Of a stretch of 25,160 nt of DNA, positions 1,349 through 25,067 are shown in pieces. Positions within the stretch are counted from its first letter, which is position 1; every line of letters begins with the position of its first letter. The notes beneath the pieces were generated by a model that made no database searches, was not told the origin of the DNA, and was given only the letters and a program-made list of their open reading frames with translations. Position numbers and translations under genes: made by a program. This stretch comes from a virus (lineage: Duplodnaviria; Caudoviricetes): IMG/VR virus record IMGVR_UViG_3300032216_000888, positions 1 through 25,160 of that record; one strand, written 5' to 3'.

Positions 1349-1854
1349 ACCTCCAGGACTACGCCGAAAGCAGGGGCGAGTCGTACCAGACGCTGGCGCG
1401 ATGGGCAAAGCAAGGGCGGTTTAAAAGCATCCAGAAGAAAGGCCGCGCTTATGACATCTCTGATCCGCAGGCGCTTGATCGTGAGATAGCAGCGGGCAAA
1501 GCGCCGGATCGTGGTGGTCGAGGCGGTGCGCCGCCGATTGATGACGCGCTGCGCCGTAAGCAGGCGGATGAGCAAGCGGTGCCGTCGTTCGCACGAAGTC
1601 GCGCAATCCGCGAGGCCTATTCAGCGCAGATCACAAAACTGGAGTTCCAGCAAAAAACGGGCAAGCTGGTCGATAAAAGCGAGCTAAAGATGAAGCTTGT
1701 CAAGCTGCACATGGCAGTGCGCGATAGCCTGCGAACAATTCCTGACAGGGTGGCGCCGATTGTTGCTGCTGAAAATGACCAGGCCAAAATCCATGCGTTG
1801 CTGCTCAAGGAAATCGGGCAGGCGCTGGAGGGCTTGAGTGGCGCAGTCGATTGA
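1345..1854 (+). CDS. Terminase small subunit (Nu1-like)
   Basis: N-terminal HTH-like segment and helical C-terminus (GKLVDK..VRDSLRTIPDRVAP). Overlaps the start of the large terminase. Confidence 0.75.
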   Translation: MNLQDYAESRGESYQTLARWAKQGRFKSIQKKGRAYDISDPQALDREIAAGKAPDRGGRGGAPPIDDALRRKQADEQAVPSFARSRAIREAYSAQITKLEFQQKTGKLVDKSELKMKLVKLHMAVRDSLRTIPDRVAPIVAAENDQAKIHALLLKEIGQALEGLSGAVD

Positions 1855-3706
1855 TGATCTGTTGCAGGTATGCCGCGAGGCGCTGCGGTTTGAGGCTGAT
1901 CTAACGGTCAGCGAATGGGCTGATGCGCATCGAGTGCTGAGCGGCAAGGCATCGGCTGAGCCTGGACCGTGGCGCACGGATCGAACGCCATACCTGAAAG
2001 AGGTTATGGATTGCCTGAGCACCACCAACCCAATGCAGCGGGTGGTGCTGATGGCTGGAGCGCAGTTGGGGAAGACCGAGGCCGGTTCGAACTGGCTGGG
2101 GTACGTGATCGCGCACGCTCCTGGTCCGATGCTGATGGTGCAGCCGACCGTGGACATGGCAAAGCGGCTATCGAAGCAGCGGCTGGAGAGTTTGATCACC
2201 GAAACGCCATGCCTGAGTGAGCGGATTGCGCCAGCCAGGAGCCGGGATTCGGGAAACACGATGTTCTCGAAAGAGTTTCCGGGAGGAATGATGATCCTCA
2301 CGGGCGCCAACAGCGCGACGGGTCTGCGCTCTACTCCGTGCCGTTACATCTTCCTGGATGAGGTGGATGCGTTCCCGACCGATGTGGACGGCGAGGGCGA
2401 CCCGGTGACGCTGGCCGAACGGCGCAGCACGACGTTCAGTAGGCGGAAGATCTTTATGACTTCAACGCCGACGGTGAAAGATTTTAGTCGAATCGAATCG
2501 GAGTTCCTGCTGAGTGATCAGCGCCGGTATCACGTCCCATGCCCGCACTGTGGAGTGATGCAGTGGCTGAAGTGGGCGCAGTTGAAGTGGGAAGACAACG
2601 AACCGAGCACGGTGTTGTACGAGTGCGAGCACTGCAACGAACGGTTTGCTGAATCTCATAAGACTCAAATGTTGACAGCAGGGCAATGGGTGGCCACCGC
2701 GCCGGGCGATGGCAAGACGGCAGGCTTTCATCTGTCGTCGCTTTACAGCCCGCTGGGGTGGAAGTCGTGGGAAGAGGTGGTCGAAGATTTCCTACGCGCC
2801 AAGGGTGATGCTCCGCGCCTTAAGACATGGGTCAACACCGTGCTGGGTGAGACCTGGGAGGACGACTACAGCAGCAAGGTGGACGCTGCTGGCTTGATGG
2901 AGCGTTGCGAGCACTACGAACCGGCGATGCTGCCCGAGGGTGCGGTGGCGCTGACGGTTGGCGTGGACGTTCAGGACAACCGGCTGGCGGTGAGCGTGTG
3001 GGGCTGGGGACGTGATGAAGAAGGTTGGCTGCTGGATCACCAGGAGATTTTTGGCGACCCATCACGGCCGGAGCTGTGGAAGCAGTTGGATGAAGTGGTG
3101 CTGCGCGAGTGGCCGCACGCGCTGGGTGGGAAGCTGCGGCCTGACGTGGTGGCGATCGACTCAGGTGGCCACTACACCGCGGAGACTTACCAGTACGCAC
3201 GCGAGCGTGGGCGCCAGGGCGTGGTGGCGATTAAGGGGCAAAGCCAGCGGGGCAAGCCACCGATCGGCAAAGCAACGAAGGTGGATGTGAACCACAAGGG
3301 CAAGACGCTGAAGCGTGGCGCGCTGCTCTATCCGGTGGGTGGCGACACGATCAAGACAACGCTGTTCGGCAGGTTGAAGCACAACGAACCTGGCGCCGGC
3401 TACTTGCACTTTCACATGAAAACGACGGCTGACTATTTTGAGCAGCTCACGGCTGAGAAGCAGGTCCTGAGGTACAGCCGCGGCGGCTTCCCAACGCGCG
3501 AATGGGTGAAGAAACCAAGCGCACGGAACGAGGCGCTGGATTGCGTGGTCTACGCATACGCTGCGCTTAATCTGATGTACCAGCGATACGACCGCAGAAC
3601 GATCTGGGACCAGTTGGAGAAGAGGATCGAAACCCCTGTGGAGCGAAGCAGTGCCCCGCTGCTAAGATCAGGGAAAGCCACGACATCGTTCGCTAGCAAC
3701 TGGTAG
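1838..3706 (+). CDS. Terminase large subunit, lambda GpA family
   Basis: GPWRTDRTPYL, Walker A GAQLGKTE, Walker B YIFLDEVD, STPT, CPHC/CEHC, GVDVQ nuclease motif, RNEALDC. Confidence 0.96.
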   Translation: MAQSIDDLLQVCREALRFEADLTVSEWADAHRVLSGKASAEPGPWRTDRTPYLKEVMDCLSTTNPMQRVVLMAGAQLGKTEAGSNWLGYVIAHAPGPMLMVQPTVDMAKRLSKQRLESLITETPCLSERIAPARSRDSGNTMFSKEFPGGMMILTGANSATGLRSTPCRYIFLDEVDAFPTDVDGEGDPVTLAERRSTTFSRRKIFMTSTPTVKDFSRIESEFLLSDQRRYHVPCPHCGVMQWLKWAQLKWEDNEPSTVLYECEHCNERFAESHKTQMLTAGQWVATAPGDGKTAGFHLSSLYSPLGWKSWEEVVEDFLRAKGDAPRLKTWVNTVLGETWEDDYSSKVDAAGLMERCEHYEPAMLPEGAVALTVGVDVQDNRLAVSVWGWGRDEEGWLLDHQEIFGDPSRPELWKQLDEVVLREWPHALGGKLRPDVVAIDSGGHYTAETYQYARERGRQGVVAIKGQSQRGKPPIGKATKVDVNHKGKTLKRGALLYPVGGDTIKTTLFGRLKHNEPGAGYLHFHMKTTADYFEQLTAEKQVLRYSRGGFPTREWVKKPSARNEALDCVVYAYAALNLMYQRYDRRTIWDQLEKRIETPVERSSAPLLRSGKATTSFASNW

Positions 3707-3709
3707 GCC

Positions 3710-4279
3710 GTGAACATCCCTGCACAGATCACTGCTGGCGACACCGTGAAATGGCGGGACGTTGCGACCAAGGACAACCTTGGCAACGTGATCGATAGCA
3801 GCGCCTGGACGCTGACCTATTACCTGCGGACCAATACAGCAAGCGAAGGCGCGACGGCAGTGGCCGCGGCCTATGGCTCCGGCTGGGAAACAACGTTGAG
3901 CGCGGCGACGACAGCAGCTTTTGATGCTGGGCATTGGTTTTGGCAAGCGATCGCAACCAAGGCAAGCGAAAAGCTGACCCTTGGTGCTGGTCAACTGGAT
4001 GTCAGCGCTGCGCTCAATTACACGGGCACTCCCGGTGCATTTGACGGTCGGACTCAAGCGCACAAAGATTTGGACGCGGTGGACGCTGCAATCCGCGCCA
4101 TCGTCAGTGGTGGCGTGGTTCAGGAATACACGATCGGCAATCGACGGCTGAAGAAATACGATCTGACCGAGTTGCAGGTGCTGCGCTCTAGGCTGATTGC
4201 TGAGGTGAAGCGTGAACAGGCCGCGGCTTCGGTTGCGCAAGGTCTCGGCAACCCCCACAACCTCTTCGTTCGGTTCTAA
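3710..4279 (+). CDS. Head-tail adaptor (gpW-like C-terminal domain) with extra N-terminal domain
   Basis: Sits between terminase and portal. C-terminal helix-hairpin-helix pattern (AIRAIVSGGVVQEYTIGNRRLKKYDLTEL) resembles gpW. Confidence 0.7.
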   Translation: MNIPAQITAGDTVKWRDVATKDNLGNVIDSSAWTLTYYLRTNTASEGATAVAAAYGSGWETTLSAATTAAFDAGHWFWQAIATKASEKLTLGAGQLDVSAALNYTGTPGAFDGRTQAHKDLDAVDAAIRAIVSGGVVQEYTIGNRRLKKYDLTELQVLRSRLIAEVKREQAAASVAQGLGNPHNLFVRF

Positions 4280-5790
4280 TGGGCGTCCGATCTGCTATTC
4301 GCGAGCTGTTCAGCCGCACCGAAACGCCGATGCCAGCGCCACGGCGGCGGATGTTTGAAGGTGCCCGCACCAGCCGACTGACGGCTGACTGGGTGACAAG
4401 CGCCAGCAGCGTTGACGCTGAGATCCGATCGAGCCTGTATGCGCTGCGCAATAGGGCGCGGCAACTCTGCCGGGATTCGGACTATGCCAAACAGGCGCTG
4501 CGGGCAATTGCCAGCAACGTGGTTGGCCAAGGGATTCCGTTTCAGGCGCAGGTCAAACAGCAGCGCGGCAACCGTCTGAATACGCCGGTCAACGATCAGA
4601 TAGAGCAGCTTTGGGCGAAATGGAGCCGCGCTAAGTATTGCCACACGGCTGGCAAGCTTGGCTTTGCGGATATTGAGCGCCTGCTGGTGCGCAGCGTGGC
4701 CGAGAGCGGCGAGGTGCTGGTGCGAATGGTGAAGCAGCCATTTGCAGACTCCCCGGTGCCGATGGCTTTGGAGGTGCTTGAGGCTGATCTGCTTGATGAT
4801 CGGTACAACGGCAAGGTGGCCAGCAACGGCAACGAAGTTCGCATGGGCGTCGAGCTGGATAAGTGGCACCGGCCGGTGGCGTACTACTTCCTGCCGCGTC
4901 ATCCGGGCGACTACACCTTCAGCAACTCGACGCCGGACAATTATCTGCCGCGCACGCGGGTGCCGGCGGATGAAGTGATCCATCTATTTCTGACGGAGCG
5001 GCCTGGTCAGACCCGTGGCGTGAGCTGGTTTGCGTCGGCTATCAAGCGGCTGCATCACCTGAGCGGATATGAAGAGGCCGAGGTGATCCGCGCTCGGGCA
5101 TCGTCGGCGCTCATGGGTTTTATCACCAGCCCAGAGGGCGAGCTGCAAGGCGATGAGGTGCTCGATGGTGAGCGCGTCAGTTCGTTTGAGCCTGGTGTCT
5201 TCAAGTACCTGGCGCCTGGCGAGTCGGTCAGCGTGCCCCAGTTGGATGCTCCTGATGGGCAGTTCGAGCCGTTCATACGCGCCATGCTGCGTGCGGTTTC
5301 GGCTGGCCTTGGTGTTTCGTATGAATCAGTCAGCCATGATTTCAGTTCAACCAACTACAGCAGCAGCCGATTGAGCTTGCTGGAAGAGCGCGATACCTAC
5401 CGCCAGCTTCAGGCATGGATGATCGAAAGCTTCCACCAGCGCGTGTTTGAAGCATGGCTCGACATGGCGGTGCTGAGCGGCTCATTGGATCTGCCCCTCT
5501 ATGACCTGGACCCCGATCGCTACCGGCAGGTGCGGTGGATGCCGCGTGGCTGGGCATGGGTTGATCCGCAAAAAGAGGTGGAGGCGTACAAGGCCGCCGA
5601 GCTTGCTGGCTACATCACTAAAGCCGAGGTCATCGCTGAAAACGGTGGCGACATCGAAGATGTCTTCACGCAGCGACGCCGCGAGCTGGATATGGCCGAG
5701 CAGTTGCAGCTCTACTTCGACACCAACTTCCAGCAGCCTCAAATACCGGCGCCCCAGCCGGATCAACCCCCAGCTGGTTCTGCGCCATGA
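4279..5790 (+). CDS. Portal protein, lambda family
   Basis: LRNRARQL, SGEVLVR, GVELDKWHRPVAYY, RPGQTRGV, NYSSSR and WVDPQKE motifs. Confidence 0.96.
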   Translation: MGVRSAIRELFSRTETPMPAPRRRMFEGARTSRLTADWVTSASSVDAEIRSSLYALRNRARQLCRDSDYAKQALRAIASNVVGQGIPFQAQVKQQRGNRLNTPVNDQIEQLWAKWSRAKYCHTAGKLGFADIERLLVRSVAESGEVLVRMVKQPFADSPVPMALEVLEADLLDDRYNGKVASNGNEVRMGVELDKWHRPVAYYFLPRHPGDYTFSNSTPDNYLPRTRVPADEVIHLFLTERPGQTRGVSWFASAIKRLHHLSGYEEAEVIRARASSALMGFITSPEGELQGDEVLDGERVSSFEPGVFKYLAPGESVSVPQLDAPDGQFEPFIRAMLRAVSAGLGVSYESVSHDFSSTNYSSSRLSLLEERDTYRQLQAWMIESFHQRVFEAWLDMAVLSGSLDLPLYDLDPDRYRQVRWMPRGWAWVDPQKEVEAYKAAELAGYITKAEVIAENGGDIEDVFTQRRRELDMAEQLQLYFDTNFQQPQIPAPQPDQPPAGSAP

Positions 5791-6170
5791 TTCCCCCCGA
5801 CCGTTCTACCAATCCGGCCGCAGCCGAGTTTTTTATTACGCTGCTTCATGCCGCCACCAGCGGCCATGTCCTGCATTTGCAGACCCGGAGCTTTGCGCAG
5901 CACAAGACGCTGGATGATTTCTACAGCTCGCTGCCCGGCTTGGTCGATGATGTGATCGAGGCGTACCAGGGCAAGTACGGCTTGGTGCTGGATTATCCCA
6001 GCGGTTACACGGTGCCGATCACGGCGCCGATCGATTTCGTCAGTGCGCTCAGCGATTACGTCATGAGCACTCGCGCTAGCGTGGCATCAGATTCCGAAAT
6101 CCAGAATCTCGTCGATGAGATTCAGGATCTGATCGACTCGACCCTTTACAAGCTGAGGTTCCTGGCATGA
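5787..6170 (+). CDS. Dps/ferritin-like four-helix protein (DUF5856-like)
   Basis: HLQT.SFAQHKTLDDFY..L..LVDDVIEAYQG. H39/D43/D54/E58 have the +4/+11/+4 spacing of Dps ferroxidase ligands. ATGA overlaps at both ends. Confidence 0.8.
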   Translation: MIPPDRSTNPAAAEFFITLLHAATSGHVLHLQTRSFAQHKTLDDFYSSLPGLVDDVIEAYQGKYGLVLDYPSGYTVPITAPIDFVSALSDYVMSTRASVASDSEIQNLVDEIQDLIDSTLYKLRFLA

Positions 6171-8317
6171 ACCCGACCGGAGTGAACCAACGGGATCTCA
6201 ACGATGACATGGGTGCCCGTCAAACATTGATGCACCAGGCCCTTGAGGACGTGGTGGATGAGCTGGGGCAGTTTGACCAAACCATCGGAGACGACGGCGC
6301 TCACTACATGGGCCCGGATAAAAACGTTTTTGCTGCCCAAGGAATGCAGTGCTCGAACTGCGTGTTCTTCGAGGGTGGTCGCGCATGCGAATTGGTGCAG
6401 GGTGACATTGATCCGGCGGGGCTTTGTAAGCTTTGGATTATTCCCGAGACATTGCTTCCCGCTGACATGACGGAACCTGCTGGCGAACTTCCAGAGCGTG
6501 CCGCCAAGGCAAAGACCTTACGCCGCAATGAGGCGGTGTTGTTCGAGCGTGCCGCCGATGGCGAGGACAACCTCACTTACACCTTCCCGTTCAGCTCCGA
6601 GTATCCGGTGCAGCGGTACTTCGGCAACGAAGTCCTGAGTCACGACCTTGGCGCTGCTGATCTCAGCCGCATGAACGATGCCGCGCCGCTTCTTTGGAAT
6701 CACGACACCAACAAGGTCATCGGTGTTGTTGAGCGTGCTTGGATTGATGAGCAACAAAAGCGCGGTTACACAACTGTGCGGTTCAGTCGTAATGCGTTCG
6801 CCCAGGAAATCCTGGCGGACGTGCGTGATGGCGTACTGCGCAACGTCTCGTTCGCGTACTCTGTGGATAACATGGAGGAGCGCAGCGGCAACTTCGTGGT
6901 GACCAAATGGACGCCTTACGAAGCTTCAATCGTGAGCGTGCCCGCCGACAACTCTGTCGGAATTGGGCGTTCTCTCGACGCTGAACCCGCGGCCACCGCC
7001 GCAACACAACCCCAACCAGAACCAGAGGTTCACATGGAATCCACCCCTGATTTGTCAGTGGTGCGGGCTGAAGCGGCTGAGGCCGAGCGCAGCCGCATCT
7101 CCGGCATCACTGCCCTTTGCAGCAAGCACGGCATGTCTGATCTTGCTGGCGAACTCGTTCGCGGCGGCAAAGACATTGACGCAGCCCGCGCTGCTGTGCT
7201 GGAGCGCATCGGCTCCAAGCAACAGCCTGTGCGCGAGGTTTCTGACCTCGGCATGAACGAAAAGGAAGTTCGTGACTTCTCCTTCGTTCGCGCCATCAAC
7301 GCTCTCGCCAACCCCACCGATCGCGCTGCCCAGCGGGCTGCTGCTTTCGAGTTCGAGGTGAGCGAAGCTGCTGCTGCTCATTACGGCAAGGACAACCGCG
7401 GCATTACCGTGCCGATGGATGTGCTCAAGCGTGACTTGACGGTTGGCACCGCCACTGCTGGTGGTAACACCGTTGCAACCGACCTGCTGGCTGGCGATTT
7501 CATTACGCTGCTGCGTAACCGCGCCGTGATCATGGGTCTTGGCACCCGCGTCATGACCGGCCTGCAAGGCAACGTGGCTATCCCCCGCGCCACGGCCGCT
7601 GCAACCGCTTACTGGGTTGCTGAGTCCGGCGCACCTACCGAAAGCCAGCAGGCTTTTGATCAGGTGACCCTGAGCCCCAAAACTGTTGGTGCTTACACGG
7701 ACATCAGCCGCAAGCTGCTGCTCCAGTCGTCCCTCGACGTGGAAAGCTTCGTGCGTGATGACCTTGCCACCGTGCTTGGTCTGGAAATCGACCGCGCTGC
7801 CATCAACGGCTCCGGTTCTTCCAACCAGCCCACCGGCATTCTTCAGACCTCAGGCATCGGCTCCGTGGCCGGCGGCACCAACGGTGCTGCTCCCAGCTAC
7901 GCCAACATCATCGACCTGGAATCCCAAGTCGCTGTGGCCAACGCTGACATGGGCAGCCTCAGCTATCTGACAAACCCCAAGGTTCGCGGCAAGCTGAAGG
8001 GCACCTTCACCAACAGCACCTACGGTGAGATCCCCATCTACGGCGCTGACAACACCCTGAATGGCTACGGCGTCGCCGTGACCAACCAGGTGCCTTACAA
8101 CCTTACCAAGGGTTCTGCCTCCGGTGTTTGCTCCGCCATCATCTTCGGCAACTTCGCCGACCTGATGATCGGCATGTGGGGTTCGATCAGCCTGATGGTT
8201 GATCCTTACACCTCCAGCACCAGCGGCACCGTCCGCGTGGTCGCTCTCCAGGACATCGACATTGCGGTTCGGAACGCTGTTTCCTTCGCCGCCATGAAGG
8301 ACGCCCTGACCACCTGA
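6167..8317 (+). CDS. Capsid polyprotein: HiPIP-like Cys4 domain + HK97-type prohead protease + scaffold/delta domain + major capsid protein
   Basis: C62/C65/C74/C87 motif, protease signatures (FSSEYPV, LLWNHD, RNVSFAY, YEASIVSVPAD), helical scaffold region, then HK97-fold MCP motifs (AYWVAES, ISRKLLLQS, IIFGNFAD). Confidence 0.93.
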   Translation: MNPTGVNQRDLNDDMGARQTLMHQALEDVVDELGQFDQTIGDDGAHYMGPDKNVFAAQGMQCSNCVFFEGGRACELVQGDIDPAGLCKLWIIPETLLPADMTEPAGELPERAAKAKTLRRNEAVLFERAADGEDNLTYTFPFSSEYPVQRYFGNEVLSHDLGAADLSRMNDAAPLLWNHDTNKVIGVVERAWIDEQQKRGYTTVRFSRNAFAQEILADVRDGVLRNVSFAYSVDNMEERSGNFVVTKWTPYEASIVSVPADNSVGIGRSLDAEPAATAATQPQPEPEVHMESTPDLSVVRAEAAEAERSRISGITALCSKHGMSDLAGELVRGGKDIDAARAAVLERIGSKQQPVREVSDLGMNEKEVRDFSFVRAINALANPTDRAAQRAAAFEFEVSEAAAAHYGKDNRGITVPMDVLKRDLTVGTATAGGNTVATDLLAGDFITLLRNRAVIMGLGTRVMTGLQGNVAIPRATAAATAYWVAESGAPTESQQAFDQVTLSPKTVGAYTDISRKLLLQSSLDVESFVRDDLATVLGLEIDRAAINGSGSSNQPTGILQTSGIGSVAGGTNGAAPSYANIIDLESQVAVANADMGSLSYLTNPKVRGKLKGTFTNSTYGEIPIYGADNTLNGYGVAVTNQVPYNLTKGSASGVCSAIIFGNFADLMIGMWGSISLMVDPYTSSTSGTVRVVALQDIDIAVRNAVSFAAMKDALTT

Positions 8318-8326
8318 TAAGGAGCC

Positions 8327-8354
8327 GGGGGCGGGCAACCGCCCCCCTTTTTTT
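8327..8354 (+). terminator. Rho-independent terminator after the major capsid gene
   Basis: GGGGGCGG-GCAA-CCGCCCCC hairpin (GNRA loop) followed by T7. Confidence 0.9.
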
Positions 8355-8357
8355 CTC

Positions 8358-8799: not shown

Positions 8800-9224
8800 C
8801 GACCCGCCGCGAAACAATCCTGGCCGGCATCAAGACGGCACTTACCGGCACCACTGGCGTGGCCACGCGGATCTACCGCAGCCGGGTCGAGCCGATCGCG
8901 CGCGAGGAAAGCCCGGCCATCGTGGTTGAGCCGTTAAATGACACGGCAACCATCGAAACCAACCTGGCCACGTTGACCTGGAACATGACCGTGCGCGTTT
9001 CGGTGATCGTGCGTGGCACCATTCCTGACCAGCAGGCCGACACCATTGTTGAAAGCCTGCACAGCAAGCTGATGGCTGATTACACCTTCGGTGGCTATGC
9101 AATGGACATCCTGCCCATTGGTGTAACCTTCAACATGACCGAAGCCGATGGTCCTGCTGGAGAAATCCAGTGCGATTATCGTGTGATGTATCGGACCTCC
9201 CTCACTAACCTGGCGAGTGCCTAA
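8796..9224 (+). CDS. Tail terminator / completion protein (gpU-like)
   Basis: RRETILAGIK..RIYRSRVEPI..PAIVV. Lies between head closure and tail tube genes. Confidence 0.7.
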   Translation: MTTRRETILAGIKTALTGTTGVATRIYRSRVEPIAREESPAIVVEPLNDTATIETNLATLTWNMTVRVSVIVRGTIPDQQADTIVESLHSKLMADYTFGGYAMDILPIGVTFNMTEADGPAGEIQCDYRVMYRTSLTNLASA

Positions 9225-9400
9225 TGGCTACGATGATGGATGAATACTGGGGCCAGGGCGGCACCTACCTCCTGGACCCCAAAACCGGCAACAGAAAGCT
9301 CATTGAGCGGACAGAGCCGGCCCAACCCTCCGAACCCGAACCCGAGGAATTGAGCAATGGCACTTCTGAGCCGCAAGCGTCTGATCCTGGTCAAAACTGA
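9224..9400 (+). CDS. Small 58-aa hypothetical protein (not in ORF track)
   Basis: MATMMDEYWGQGGTYLLDPKTGNRKLIERTEPAQP... TAATG coupling to the upstream stop, and it fills the gap before the tail tube. Confidence 0.6.
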   Translation: MATMMDEYWGQGGTYLLDPKTGNRKLIERTEPAQPSEPEPEELSNGTSEPQASDPGQN

Positions 9401-10300: not shown

Positions 10301-10660
10301 ATGGCTTTTGTCTTAAAGCAAACCGACACCTACAGCTGGCCGGTCACTTTTGACATTCCCGTCGATGGTGGCCGGCATGAGCGCCAAACGTTTGATGGCG
10401 AGTTCAAGCGCCTCCCGCAGAGCAAGGTAGGTCCAATGGTCTCCGAGCTGAATAGGCTCGAAGACGGCGGAGAAATGGAACGCATCACCGAACTGGCTTG
10501 CGAGGTTCTCGTGGGCTGGTCTGGTGTGACTGATGATTCCGGCAAGGACATCCCATTCAGCCAAAAGGCGCTGGAGCAATTGCTCGAAGTGCCTTTACTG
10601 GCGGCAGCGGTGCTGCGCTCCTACTTTGACAGCTTGAAGGGAGCCAAGCGAAAAAACTGA
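10301..10660 (+). CDS. Tail assembly chaperone (gpG analogue)
   Basis: LVGWSGVTDDSGKDIPFS motif. Ends ..KRKN* on a slippery sequence. Confidence 0.85.
   Translation: MAFVLKQTDTYSWPVTFDIPVDGGRHERQTFDGEFKRLPQSKVGPMVSELNRLEDGGEMERITELACEVLVGWSGVTDDSGKDIPFSQKALEQLLEVPLLAAAVLRSYFDSLKGAKRKN
10651..10657 (+). promoter_or_regulatory. -1 programmed ribosomal frameshift site A AAA AAC
   Basis: X XXY YYZ heptamer in the correct phase just before the stop. The -1 frame is open 10657-10977. Confidence 0.85.
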
Positions 10661-22740: not shown

Positions 22741-23361
22741 ATGCAACTCCTTGACTTTTTCCGCTACTACCGCAGCGGAACGCCTCACCAGGACGCGGCC
22801 ATTGCTGAGCTGGAAGCCGCGATCAACAAAGCCGATGCCGCAATCCTTGACCGGAACGCCAACTGGTACAAGACCTGGCAAACCGCCGGCAAAACCACCG
22901 GCGCCGATGACCTCGGGCCAGCTTTAGCGCTGATCAGGGAATTCGAGGGCTGCAACCTCCACGCATACGACGATGGCGTCGGCGTGGTCACGATCGGCTG
23001 GGGCACCGCTCGCAGGTATCCCGATGGCCGTGCAATCGGCTGGCATGACACCATCACCCAAGCGCAGGCCGACGAGTACCTGGCCCATGAGGTCAATGGC
23101 ACCTACGGCACGTTGGCCAAAACGATCCCCTGTTGGGGTGAGATGAACGCCAACCAGCGCGGCTGCCTGACCAGCTTTGCCTACAACCTCGGCGCCTATT
23201 TCTATGGCAGCGATGGATTTGGCACGATCAGCCGAGCGTTGAAAGACAAGCGCTGGAAGGATGTCCCGGATGCGCTCAAGCTTTACCGCAACCCTGGCAG
23301 CAACGTCGAGGCTGGCTTGCTCAGGCGTAGAGTTGCCGAAGGTGTCGTCTGGTCTAAGTGA
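22741..23361 (+). CDS. Endolysin, GH24 lysozyme with N-terminal extra domain
   Basis: FEGCNLHAYDDGVGVVTIGWG (E-x8-D-x5-T triad), SFAYNLG, GLLRRRVAE. Confidence 0.92.
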   Translation: MQLLDFFRYYRSGTPHQDAAIAELEAAINKADAAILDRNANWYKTWQTAGKTTGADDLGPALALIREFEGCNLHAYDDGVGVVTIGWGTARRYPDGRAIGWHDTITQAQADEYLAHEVNGTYGTLAKTIPCWGEMNANQRGCLTSFAYNLGAYFYGSDGFGTISRALKDKRWKDVPDALKLYRNPGSNVEAGLLRRRVAEGVVWSK

Positions 23362-23873
23362 TCATTCCTGATTTCGAGATCCGCCGCTATTGCCAAGAGG
23401 AGGCAATGGTGGTGCCGTTCAATCCTGAGCTGTTGAACCCGGCGTCACTTGACCTGACGCTGGGTGATCGCCTGATGATCGAAACGGAAGAGCATTCCAA
23501 CCTCCAAATCCACGGCATCAGCCACCACACGCAGGCCGATCCTTTCCGGCTTCAACCGGGCGAATTTTGTTTGGCGGAAACGGCGGAAATTTTTAACCTG
23601 CCCGACGACATCGCCGCTCAGTTTGTGCTCAAGTCCAGCCGGGCACGCGAAGGCCTCGAACACCTCCTAGCCGGTTACTGCGACCCCGGCTGGCATGGCA
23701 GCCGCCTGACGCTGGAGCTGCAATGCGCACGGCGCCACCATCCGGTTGCCCTATGGCCAGGGATGAAGATTGGCCAGATGGTGTTTCACCTCATGGCCGC
23801 AACGCCTGAACGGACCTACGCTGTAACAGGACGTTACAATCGGGACGAACAGGTAACCGCCAGTAAAGGGTAG
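23358..23873 (+). CDS. dcd: dCTP deaminase
   Basis: LNPASLDLTLG, LQPGEFCLAET, KSSRAREGL, AGYCDPGW.G.LTLE, GMKIGQMVF. Confidence 0.9.
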   Translation: MIIPDFEIRRYCQEEAMVVPFNPELLNPASLDLTLGDRLMIETEEHSNLQIHGISHHTQADPFRLQPGEFCLAETAEIFNLPDDIAAQFVLKSSRAREGLEHLLAGYCDPGWHGSRLTLELQCARRHHPVALWPGMKIGQMVFHLMAATPERTYAVTGRYNRDEQVTASKG

Positions 23874-23895
23874 GCTTAAGAACGAGGAGAGACCC

Positions 23896-23926
23896 GACCC
23901 CGGTCATGGCTGGGGTCTTTTTATTT
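23896..23926 (+). terminator. Rho-independent terminator of the late operon, overlapping the integrase 3' end
   Basis: GACCCCGG-TCATGG-CTGGGGTC stem (one G-U pair) followed by TTTTTATTT. Confidence 0.7.
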
Positions 23927-25067
23927 GCGCCGCCACCAGCGCCACGTTGGCCGCGGCCGCTTCATCGATCAGGTGCGCGTACCTGGCAGTGGTCTGAGTG
24001 CTGGCATGACCAAGCTGGCCGCCGATCTGGGCCAACGTCAACCCAGCGCTGACGGCCATCGATGCCCACTGATGGCGCAGGTCATGCACCCGCAAGTTTT
24101 CGATCTGCGCACGTTCCAACAAACGCGCCCACAATTCGCTGTATGCAACAAGCGGCCGATCACCACGCCCATGAATCACCCAGCCACCATTGGTGCGTTG
24201 CCGGAGCTGCCGCAAGATTTCAACCGCTGCGGGCGGCAGATGCACCACGCGGTCATTGCCATCGCCGCCTGTCTTATGTTCAGCGGCAGGTATCACCAGG
24301 ATTGCGGCATCCAGGTTGACCCATTCCCAACGCGCTCGGATGATTTCGCCTACGCGGCAACCGGTGAGCAGCAGCAACCGGATCATTTGCGCAAATCGCA
24401 GCTGGTTGGCAGTGACAGTGAAATCATCAAGCGCCAGCAGCAGTCGTTCCAGTTCATCGCGGCTCAGGTAGCGGCGCCGCTTGCGTTCGCGGTTGGCGGC
24501 GATATGGCGGCATGGGTTCTGGCCCTGCGGCCTGAGGTTCCACAGCTCGGCCAGGTTCATCGCCTTGCTTAGCACCTCCAGCGCACGATTAGCGGTGATC
24601 GCCCTGCCGGCGCTGATTTGATGGAACCAGCGGGCGACCTCATCGGATGACAGCGCGGCAACTTTTGTACGGCCAAATGCCGGCAATAGATAAAGGCGCC
24701 AGAGCAGTTCCTGCTGCCGCAATGTGCTGGGCCGCAGCTTGGGCCAGTGCTCGCGTTTGATCCGATCAAGCAAGCTGACAATCGTGGCGCAATGCCGGAC
24801 CTGATGCTGGTGTTCGCCCTTCAAGGCAGATGCCAAAACCTGAAGCGCTATTTCACGTGCAACGATCGCGCCCAACACATTGCGCCGCCCGATCCGGTGC
24901 ATCACCTGGCGGCCATCGCGCAACCTAAAGCGCAGATACCAAGTGGCGACGCCGGAGGGCAATTCCAGCACCCCGAGGCCTTGCACTTTTGGATCCGGCA
25001 GCCATCGCCTCGTTATCACGCCATTTTCCCAGAAAGCCAGGAACGGGCGTGACTCTGTAGGAATCAC
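23904..25067 (-). CDS. int: Tyrosine integrase with N-terminal arm-binding domain
   Basis: TGCRVGE (R), HKT (K), HDLRH, LGH and RYAH (Y) catalytic set. N-terminal GLGVLELPSGVATWYLRFR. Start codon uncertain. Confidence 0.93.
   Translation of the reverse strand: MIPTESRPFLAFWENGVITRRWLPDPKVQGLGVLELPSGVATWYLRFRLRDGRQVMHRIGRRNVLGAIVAREIALQVLASALKGEHQHQVRHCATIVSLLDRIKREHWPKLRPSTLRQQELLWRLYLLPAFGRTKVAALSSDEVARWFHQISAGRAITANRALEVLSKAMNLAELWNLRPQGQNPCRHIAANRERKRRRYLSRDELERLLLALDDFTVTANQLRFAQMIRLLLLTGCRVGEIIRARWEWVNLDAAILVIPAAEHKTGGDGNDRVVHLPPAAVEILRQLRQRTNGGWVIHGRGDRPLVAYSELWARLLERAQIENLRVHDLRHQWASMAVSAGLTLAQIGGQLGHASTQTTARYAHLIDEAAAANVALVAAQIKRPQP

Follow-up and report, generated by a model that had tools for sequence, protein, structure and literature searches.

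Encapsulins are shells of the HK97 fold that carry ferritin-like cargo, and mini-ferritins of the Dps type have a ferroxidase site between subunits that is made of a His/His/Asp/Glu set. Both systems come to mind in the head operon of a tailed phage represented by the 25-kb virus record IMGVR_UViG_3300032216_000888 (about 65% complete; the whole stretch of 25,160 nucleotides is called the window here). In this operon, a gene of the DUF5856/PHROG 858 family coding for a Dps-like protein sits between the portal gene and a gene that fuses a four-cysteine (Cys4) domain similar to high-potential iron-sulfur proteins (HiPIPs) with a prohead protease, a scaffold and the major capsid protein. We found that the two parts occur independently: the closest relatives, and almost all loci that we examined, have just one of them. 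We favor, with moderate confidence, the explanation that they are two accessories of the head operon, gained and lost independently and combined only in this mosaic lineage, and that each is likely a metal-binding passenger packed separately into the procapsid.

Comparison with described systems

The likeness to an encapsulin consists of an HK97-fold shell gene adjoining a ferritin-fold gene. However, the window phage is tailed and encodes terminase, portal, tail and lysozyme proteins; its shell serves to enclose DNA, and most relatives lack the ferritin-fold gene (134 of 143 head operons have neither part). Given this complete set of tailed-phage genes, we rejected the encapsulin-like compartment that the initial annotation had proposed.

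The window protein belongs to the same family as T4 RI.-1 (MobD.6; 39% identity over 61 amino acids [aa]), LIMEstone1 ORF78 (36%) and Sajous1 gp217 (36%). While the T4 gene is in the rI operon and the Ackermannviridae gene is near the primase, the window gene is located between the portal and the protease-capsid gene and carries the ribosome-binding site of the latter. With the Dps mini-ferritins (1ji4, Listeria 1qgh) it has in common the four-helix bundle and the His/His/Asp/Glu set, but the proteins of the window family are only about 120 to 127 aa long, with no BC helix, a shorter AB loop, no basic tail and, mostly, without the Trp that follows the first His. The Cys4 domain, in turn, matches the short HiPIPs (PioC 6xyv, 3h31, 1isu, and Iro NF041615) in the spacing C-x2-C-x8-C-x12-C-x2-W and in a Tyr upstream, but differs from them in lacking a twin-arginine translocation (Tat) signal, in having an extra N-terminal helix and an aliphatic residue before the last Cys, and in being fused to head proteins.

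T4 Alt and the internal proteins, MuF fusions and polyvalent proteins also have variable small domains on a head-interior protein that is likely processed by the prohead protease (PMC5512222), whereas in the window it is the protease-scaffold-capsid polyprotein that bears the domain. Head-packaged multidomain effectors are of a known kind, and the part of that source available to us does not mention ferritin or iron-sulfur domains (PMC5512222). Phage genes similar to Dps or ferritin are known from earlier work, which interprets them as a protection of the host against oxidative stress (PMC8008677, PMC6669764). A literature search mostly without subscription journals, and without supplements, found neither HiPIP-like domains of phages nor a Dps-HiPIP pair treated in any paper, and nothing relevant on the processing of the S-CBS1 polyprotein.

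Among cultured phages, the top matches of the head polyprotein are those of the Synechococcus siphoviruses S-LBS1, S-CBS1, and S-CBS3 (46 to 49% identity), which have the same gene order and the same fused protease-scaffold-capsid gene (phrog_617); hence, the host of the window phage is likely cyanobacterial. S-LBS1 has neither the Dps-like gene nor the HiPIP-like domain.

Independent distribution of the two parts

The Dps-like gene was found in 2 of the 86 loci fetched by the Cys4 domain, and the HiPIP-like domain in 1 of the 88 loci fetched by the Dps-like gene. At least 1 kb of upstream sequence is present in 72 of the 86 HiPIP loci, and in the 44 where the end of the portal gene is visible the Dps-like gene occurs in just those 2. 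Furthermore, none of the 80 metagenome Dps loci (many of them short) carries the HiPIP-like domain, the Dps-like gene is absent from the nine HiPIP loci on genome contigs, and the Dps profile matches none of 150 diverse HiPIP-bearing proteins. All cases with both parts are near-copies, namely two contigs whose portal and polyprotein are 93 to 98% identical to those of the window; the lineage with both parts is one clade of >85% identity. A DNA pattern for the Dps/polyprotein junction retrieved 35 stretches, of which 3 were relevant: the two near-copies and locus L011.

An unbiased set was built from 160 loci chosen by protease or portal, of which 146 had the whole portal-protease interval and 143 remained after discarding three same-contig duplicates. 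Neither part was found in 134 of them, while 6 had only the HiPIP-like domain, 1 had only the Dps-like gene, and both parts were present in the two near-copies. The Fisher test on this two-by-two table gives a P value of 0.008 with the near-copies and of 1 once they are removed; therefore, the association signal amounts to one event.

In a tree of the protease (159 rows, dereplicated to 39), the window lineage groups with L011 (Dps-like gene only) and with L027 and L192 (HiPIP-like domain only) with a support of 94/87, and the label of HiPIP only needs at least four changes. The window capsid is 80% identical to that of L027 and 55% to that of L011. The Dps-like protein is 80% identical to that of L011, which the window also resembles in the first six residues of the polyprotein. 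This pattern fits either a mosaic or an ancestor with both parts that were then lost separately; in either case, each part works without the other.

The region before the protease is itself swappable. We found four interchangeable modules there (a phrog_2859-type module, an unnamed one of 75 aa, a Tudor-like one and the HiPIP-like domain) in at least nine combinations, with 74 of the 143 relatives having none of the four. The three besides the HiPIP-like domain are uncharacterized and are located at the N termini of the protease open reading frames (ORFs) of L208, L255, L195, L225, and L250; several of them seem to begin directly after an Arg.

A Dps-like protein without BC helix or basic tail

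The 127-aa ORF matches DUF5856 (PF19174) with an E value of 3e-21 and 76.6 bits, well above the curated cut-off of 34.6, and phrog_858 with an E value of 5e-26. The predicted model is a four-helix bundle (helices at residues 10 to 31, 36 to 64, 81 to 99, and 103 to 125) with a predicted local distance difference test score (pLDDT) of 96.7. Residues 65 to 80 are nonhelical in this model, which thus has no short BC helix, and the fourth helix reaches residue 125 of 127, leaving no C-terminal tail for a cargo-loading peptide of the encapsulin kind. H30, H39, D54, and E58 are invariant in the 59 homologs and align with the His/His/Asp/Glu set of the neutrophil-activating protein/Dps (1ji4), at an E value of 0.065 or weaker; we take them to be iron (ferroxidase) ligands of the Dps type. 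The position of D43 is not conserved among the homologs. Among the matches listed for 25 of 30 families (59 members, E ≤0.1) there was no ferritin or Dps Pfam profile. Nor did we find a basic DNA-binding tail, which some Dps proteins have, the net charge being −9 and none of the 59 homologs being net positive, which rules out DNA binding by this means. The protein is Dps-like, not a canonical Dps.

The family matches 1,156 phage records. In a neighborhood tally counted by hand, in which 90 of the 144 listed neighbors were scanned, mostly on the same strand, 19 of 38 Dps clusters were inside or at most two genes away from a portal, head protease or terminase gene, and about half were not beside head genes. 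Since the Shine-Dalgarno-like site of the polyprotein is kept in all eight portal-Dps loci examined, the link of the Dps-like gene with the head operon is older and wider than the HiPIP insertion. In addition, five Dps-like genes are beside podovirus-type portals (L108, L109, L139, L110, and L175), and these represent independent recruitment to the head operon. In L107 (positions 3999 to 5375), a DUF5856 domain forms the C terminus of a ClpP-type head maturation protease, right after the portal gene.

A HiPIP-like domain carried by head proteins

The Cys4 domain of the window (C62, C65, C74, and C87) has the same spacing as the HiPIP PioC. The profile of its family matches HiPIP 3h31 at an E value of 3e-4 and aligns with PioC 6xyv without gaps, and 33 of 39 members match the Pfam HIPIP family (PF01355) at E ≤0.1, the best at 1.7e-4. 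The window domain scores only 13.6 bits against PF01355, below the cut-off of 22; P0010 reaches 23 bits. The upstream Tyr is invariant and the terminal Trp is another feature of the family; among 150 diverse representatives, the four Cys are kept in 147 and the x2-x8-x12 spacing in 131. HiPIPs have the motif G-[YW]-C at the last Cys, as seen in the aligned 3h31, 6xyv, 1isu, and 1hpi. No aromatic residue was found before the last Cys in the 39 rows of the phage family, where the position is aliphatic or Lys. A Tat signal was found neither in the window nor in any of the 150 representatives. In the ESM Atlas, the Cys4 domain matches viral clusters labeled as HiPIP, at 0.87 to 0.91. Single-sequence searches of the PDB returned nothing significant, and we discarded matches to disintegrin and copper-ATPase as chance Cys matches. 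Models of the domain had a pLDDT of 78 at best (51 to 57 in the other four), with a low value in the Cys loop. Taken together, the domain is HiPIP-like by sequence. Both fold assignments of the initial annotation hold in qualified form, for a Dps-like protein that is acidic and devoid of BC helix and a HiPIP-like domain scoring under the Pfam cut-off.

The HiPIP-like profile retrieved 881 clusters at 50% identity (E ≤0.001), 420 of them at 1e-10. In 26 of 30 locus clusters, one ORF encodes both the domain and a head protease, usually straight after the portal gene. Among the best 150 representatives, 138 are proteins of more than 140 aa and 53 carry a protease of one of three types (33 S78, 11 XkdF-type, and 9 ClpP/S49). 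The domain was also seen on four ADP-ribosyltransferases (P0069, P0073, P0083, and P0087), six Zeta-family proteins (P0046, P0058, P0084, P0086, P0090, and P0137), and one portal protein (P0061). Two copies per protein are present in L095 (4215 to 5669), L099 (4239 to 5684), P0009 to P0011, and P0020.

The cultured phage DSL-LC01 (L020, positions 1164 to 1898 and 3724 to 6279) has two different Cys4 HiPIP-like domains in the head region and is a possible subject for virion proteomics. One head-region ORF of this phage is already labeled "high potential iron-sulfur protein" in GenBank. That label sits on another ORF, and the preceding 126-aa gene is not Dps-like.

Anatomy of the head operon

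The features of the operon are collected in Table 1. Coordinates and sequence bear out the initial annotation in that the Dps-like ORF lies between portal and capsid genes, with ATGA overlaps at both junctions. The in-frame fusion that it had described is likewise supported by the profiles and recurs in the relatives L001, L002, P0002, and P0003, which rules out an assembly error. As in the phrog_617 fusions, an S78 protease and an HK97 capsid protein are found in one ORF behind a lambda-type portal, and H179 and S228 of the polyprotein match the S78 catalytic motif. A Met marks where the scaffold begins in 13 of 14 relatives, with a Shine-Dalgarno-like site in the window and in 3 of the 14. 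A nested start at M290 is suggested, which would give a scaffold-capsid product without HiPIP-like domain and protease and make the HiPIP-bearing one a minority. Owing to this candidate start, one HiPIP-like domain per capsid subunit is doubtful. No sigma-70-type promoter was found between positions 3600 and 9500, and no RNA data set was listed among the sequencing runs that contain the sequence. Terminator-like sites of the kind seen after the capsid gene numbered 4, versus 4.9 expected by chance.

TABLE 1 Features of the head operon in window coordinates
Feature	Position	Strand	Evidence or remarks
Lambda-type portal	4279..5790	+	PF05136 (E 1e-108), TIGR01539; stop codon overlaps Dps-like start (ATGA)
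DUF5856/PHROG 858 Dps-like protein, 127 aa, net charge −9	5787..6170	+	Profiles and structure model
GAGGT Shine-Dalgarno-like site of polyprotein, within last codons of Dps-like gene	6155..6159	+	Kept in 8/8 examined portal-Dps loci
716-aa polyprotein: HiPIP-like domain, S78 protease, scaffold, HK97 major capsid protein	6167..8317	+	phrog_617 type, E 1e-166
HiPIP-like domain, about residues 10 to 100	6194..6466	+	N-terminal helix, Y47, C62-x2-C65-x8-C74-x12-C87, W90
Prohead serine protease S78	6542..6970	+	PF04586 at residues 151 to 262 (E 9e-11), TIGR01543
Candidate internal start and putative scaffold/delta region	7025..7432	+	GAGGT 7025-7029, ATG 7034 = M290
Mature major capsid protein, predicted start after KR422 (KR/DL)	7433..8317	+	PF05065 (E 8e-51)
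Intrinsic-terminator-like hairpin after capsid gene, 8 G-C pairs, T-run	8327..8356	+	Position is the sole support

Probable protease release and packaging in the head

The HiPIP-like domain is flanked by R9 and R111, both candidate protease sites, and the boundary QR9/DL resembles the predicted maturation site of the capsid protein, KR/DL, a pattern found across 16 fused relatives. An Arg occupies the N-terminal boundary of the domain in 27 of 27 S78 carriers (a set of related sequences), in none of 4 XkdF carriers and in 1 of 5 others. These boundaries suggest that the S78 protease frees the HiPIP-like domain at Arg sites.

Homologs of the Dps-like protein have been detected in virions. LIMEstone1 ORF78 was represented by three peptides covering 28% of the protein (PMC3296691), and Sajous1 gp217, modeled as a ferritin, by 10 spectra in CsCl-purified virions (PMC10892097). 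The authors of the latter work proposed an iron-mediated entry route and found no dependence on it (PMC10892097). With Dps-like homologs in virion mass spectrometry and the HiPIP-like domain on head-interior proteins, it is plausible that each part is packaged in the head.

Possible roles and alternative explanations

The anatomy of the operon, the independent distribution, and the swappable protease N terminus are observations, from which we infer the functional steps of the explanation that we favor. The HiPIP-like domain would take up a [4Fe-4S] cluster from the cytoplasm of the host and reach the prohead as the N-terminal part of the full-length polyprotein that includes the protease; if M290 supplies most of the capsid protein, this product is probably in the minority. 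Cleavage by the S78 protease at R9 and R111 would then release an acidic internal protein of about 100 aa that could remain inside the head or be delivered together with the DNA, to act in the next host as a redox-active effector. The Dps-like protein would be made by translational coupling with portal and capsid, bind Fe(II) at the His/His/Asp/Glu sites between subunits, and probably be packaged at low copy number, which would protect the DNA or the newly infected cell from free iron. Any common benefit (iron or oxidative-stress control, probably in a cyanobacterial host) would be parallel, not a physical or catalytic partnership.

Several results weigh against this explanation. When the Arg boundary was scored in the diverse set, from which 26 of the 150 representatives without a scorable boundary were dropped to leave 124, the signal was weaker (17 of 30 S78 carriers versus 3 of 20 with other proteases; P = 0.004) and the P value against background was 0.058, with a boundary window picked after the data had been seen. 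The HiPIP model has no structural match at Z ≥2 among 48,161 chains, although it is small, metal free and partly of low confidence. Low virion peptide counts may reflect contamination (PMC10892097), and overexpressed T4 rI.-1 prolonged lysis inhibition, a cytoplasmic role (PMC2962797). As for independence, the nominal enrichment described above must be counted here, and P0004 and P0005 may represent further cases with both parts, since they carry the HiPIP-like domain and share their first six residues with the lineage in which the Dps-like gene is adjacent.

The lysis effect of T4 rI.-1 is also the starting point for an alternative in which neither part ends in the virion. The Dps-like protein would then be a late cytoplasmic buffer of iron or oxidative stress, or prolong infection like T4 RI.-1, and the HiPIP-like domain a prodomain that adjusts protease folding or activation to the iron or redox status of the host before being removed with the scaffold. 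The Dps clusters located away from head genes, the usual reading of phage Dps genes as host protecting (PMC8008677, PMC6669764) and the frequency of the HiPIP-like domain on proteases are in line with this option. However, two Dps homologs were detected in virions, and the HiPIP-like domain precedes or follows three protease types, appears on portal and effectors, is sometimes found twice and is swapped with unrelated modules. Because of these varied carriers and positions and this interchange, the domain looks like cargo rather than a dedicated regulator, and we consider this alternative unlikely. Less likely still is that the Cys4 domain has no iron or redox role, being instead a zinc-type structural module or a nearly neutral hitchhiker of a permissive protease N terminus. 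The weak profile match of the window domain, the replaced aromatic residue, the missing fold match and the 134 of 143 relatives that do without the domain would agree with this, but the Cys spacing identical to that of PioC, the invariant Tyr and terminal Trp, the four Cys kept in 147 of the 150 diverse representatives and the number of clusters (881) argue against it.

The initial annotation had proposed that the two parts form one iron/redox module, for instance with the HiPIP accepting the electrons when the Dps-like protein oxidizes Fe(II) in the procapsid, and had named independent occurrence as what would refute it. Direct adjacency with ATGA coupling, the nominal enrichment and the possible extension of the lineage with both parts by P0004 and P0005 are compatible with such a module. 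However, independence is what the co-occurrence counts revealed: each part is alone in the closest relatives, the only cases with both belong to one clade, and both proteins are strongly acidic (−9 and −11). These counts rule against the coupled module, to which we give very little credence. A bolder version would be that many phages build iron chemistry into the head, with a virus-specific [4Fe-4S] HiPIP freed by the prohead protease and a stripped-down Dps repeatedly recruited, both acting where they meet as a pair of ferroxidase and electron acceptor that would shield the DNA in the head or, in a cell just infected, reset the state of iron and redox; we regard it as highly improbable as well.

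The pair itself looks like a coincidence of mosaicism, but its parts still matter. With an iron-sulfur-type domain on head proteases, in 881 sequence clusters, virions would have a metal-cluster component for which we found no paper. DUF5856, present even in T4, has a predicted ferroxidase site open to test, for which T4 rI.-1 offers an immediate laboratory handle. If either part holds iron in virions, this would matter for how stable virions are under oxidative stress and for the debate on how much of the aquatic iron is in phages.

Other features of the window

Profile searches identified terminase, lambda-type portal, head, tail, lysozyme, dCTP deaminase, and integrase genes in the window, as well as those of tail tube and tape measure. 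Immediately before the small terminase gene there is a fusion of a ParB-N domain with an N6/N4 DNA methylase (positions 77 to 1348). Relative L001 (611 to 2467) is 55% identical to the window (1838 to 3706) in the terminase and 98% in the portal, and by this comparison the difference is a recombination boundary just upstream of the portal gene. A 58-aa ORF without family match (9224 to 9400) has 44 bases in common with the listed tail tube ORF. A run of six A's before the stop codon of the tail chaperone gene (10650 to 10660), upstream of DUF1799, is a candidate programmed frameshift site of the usual G/GT type. Finally, positions 23358 to 25067 contain the dCTP deaminase gene, which follows the lysozyme gene, and a tyrosine integrase gene on the opposite strand, suggesting that the window phage is temperate.

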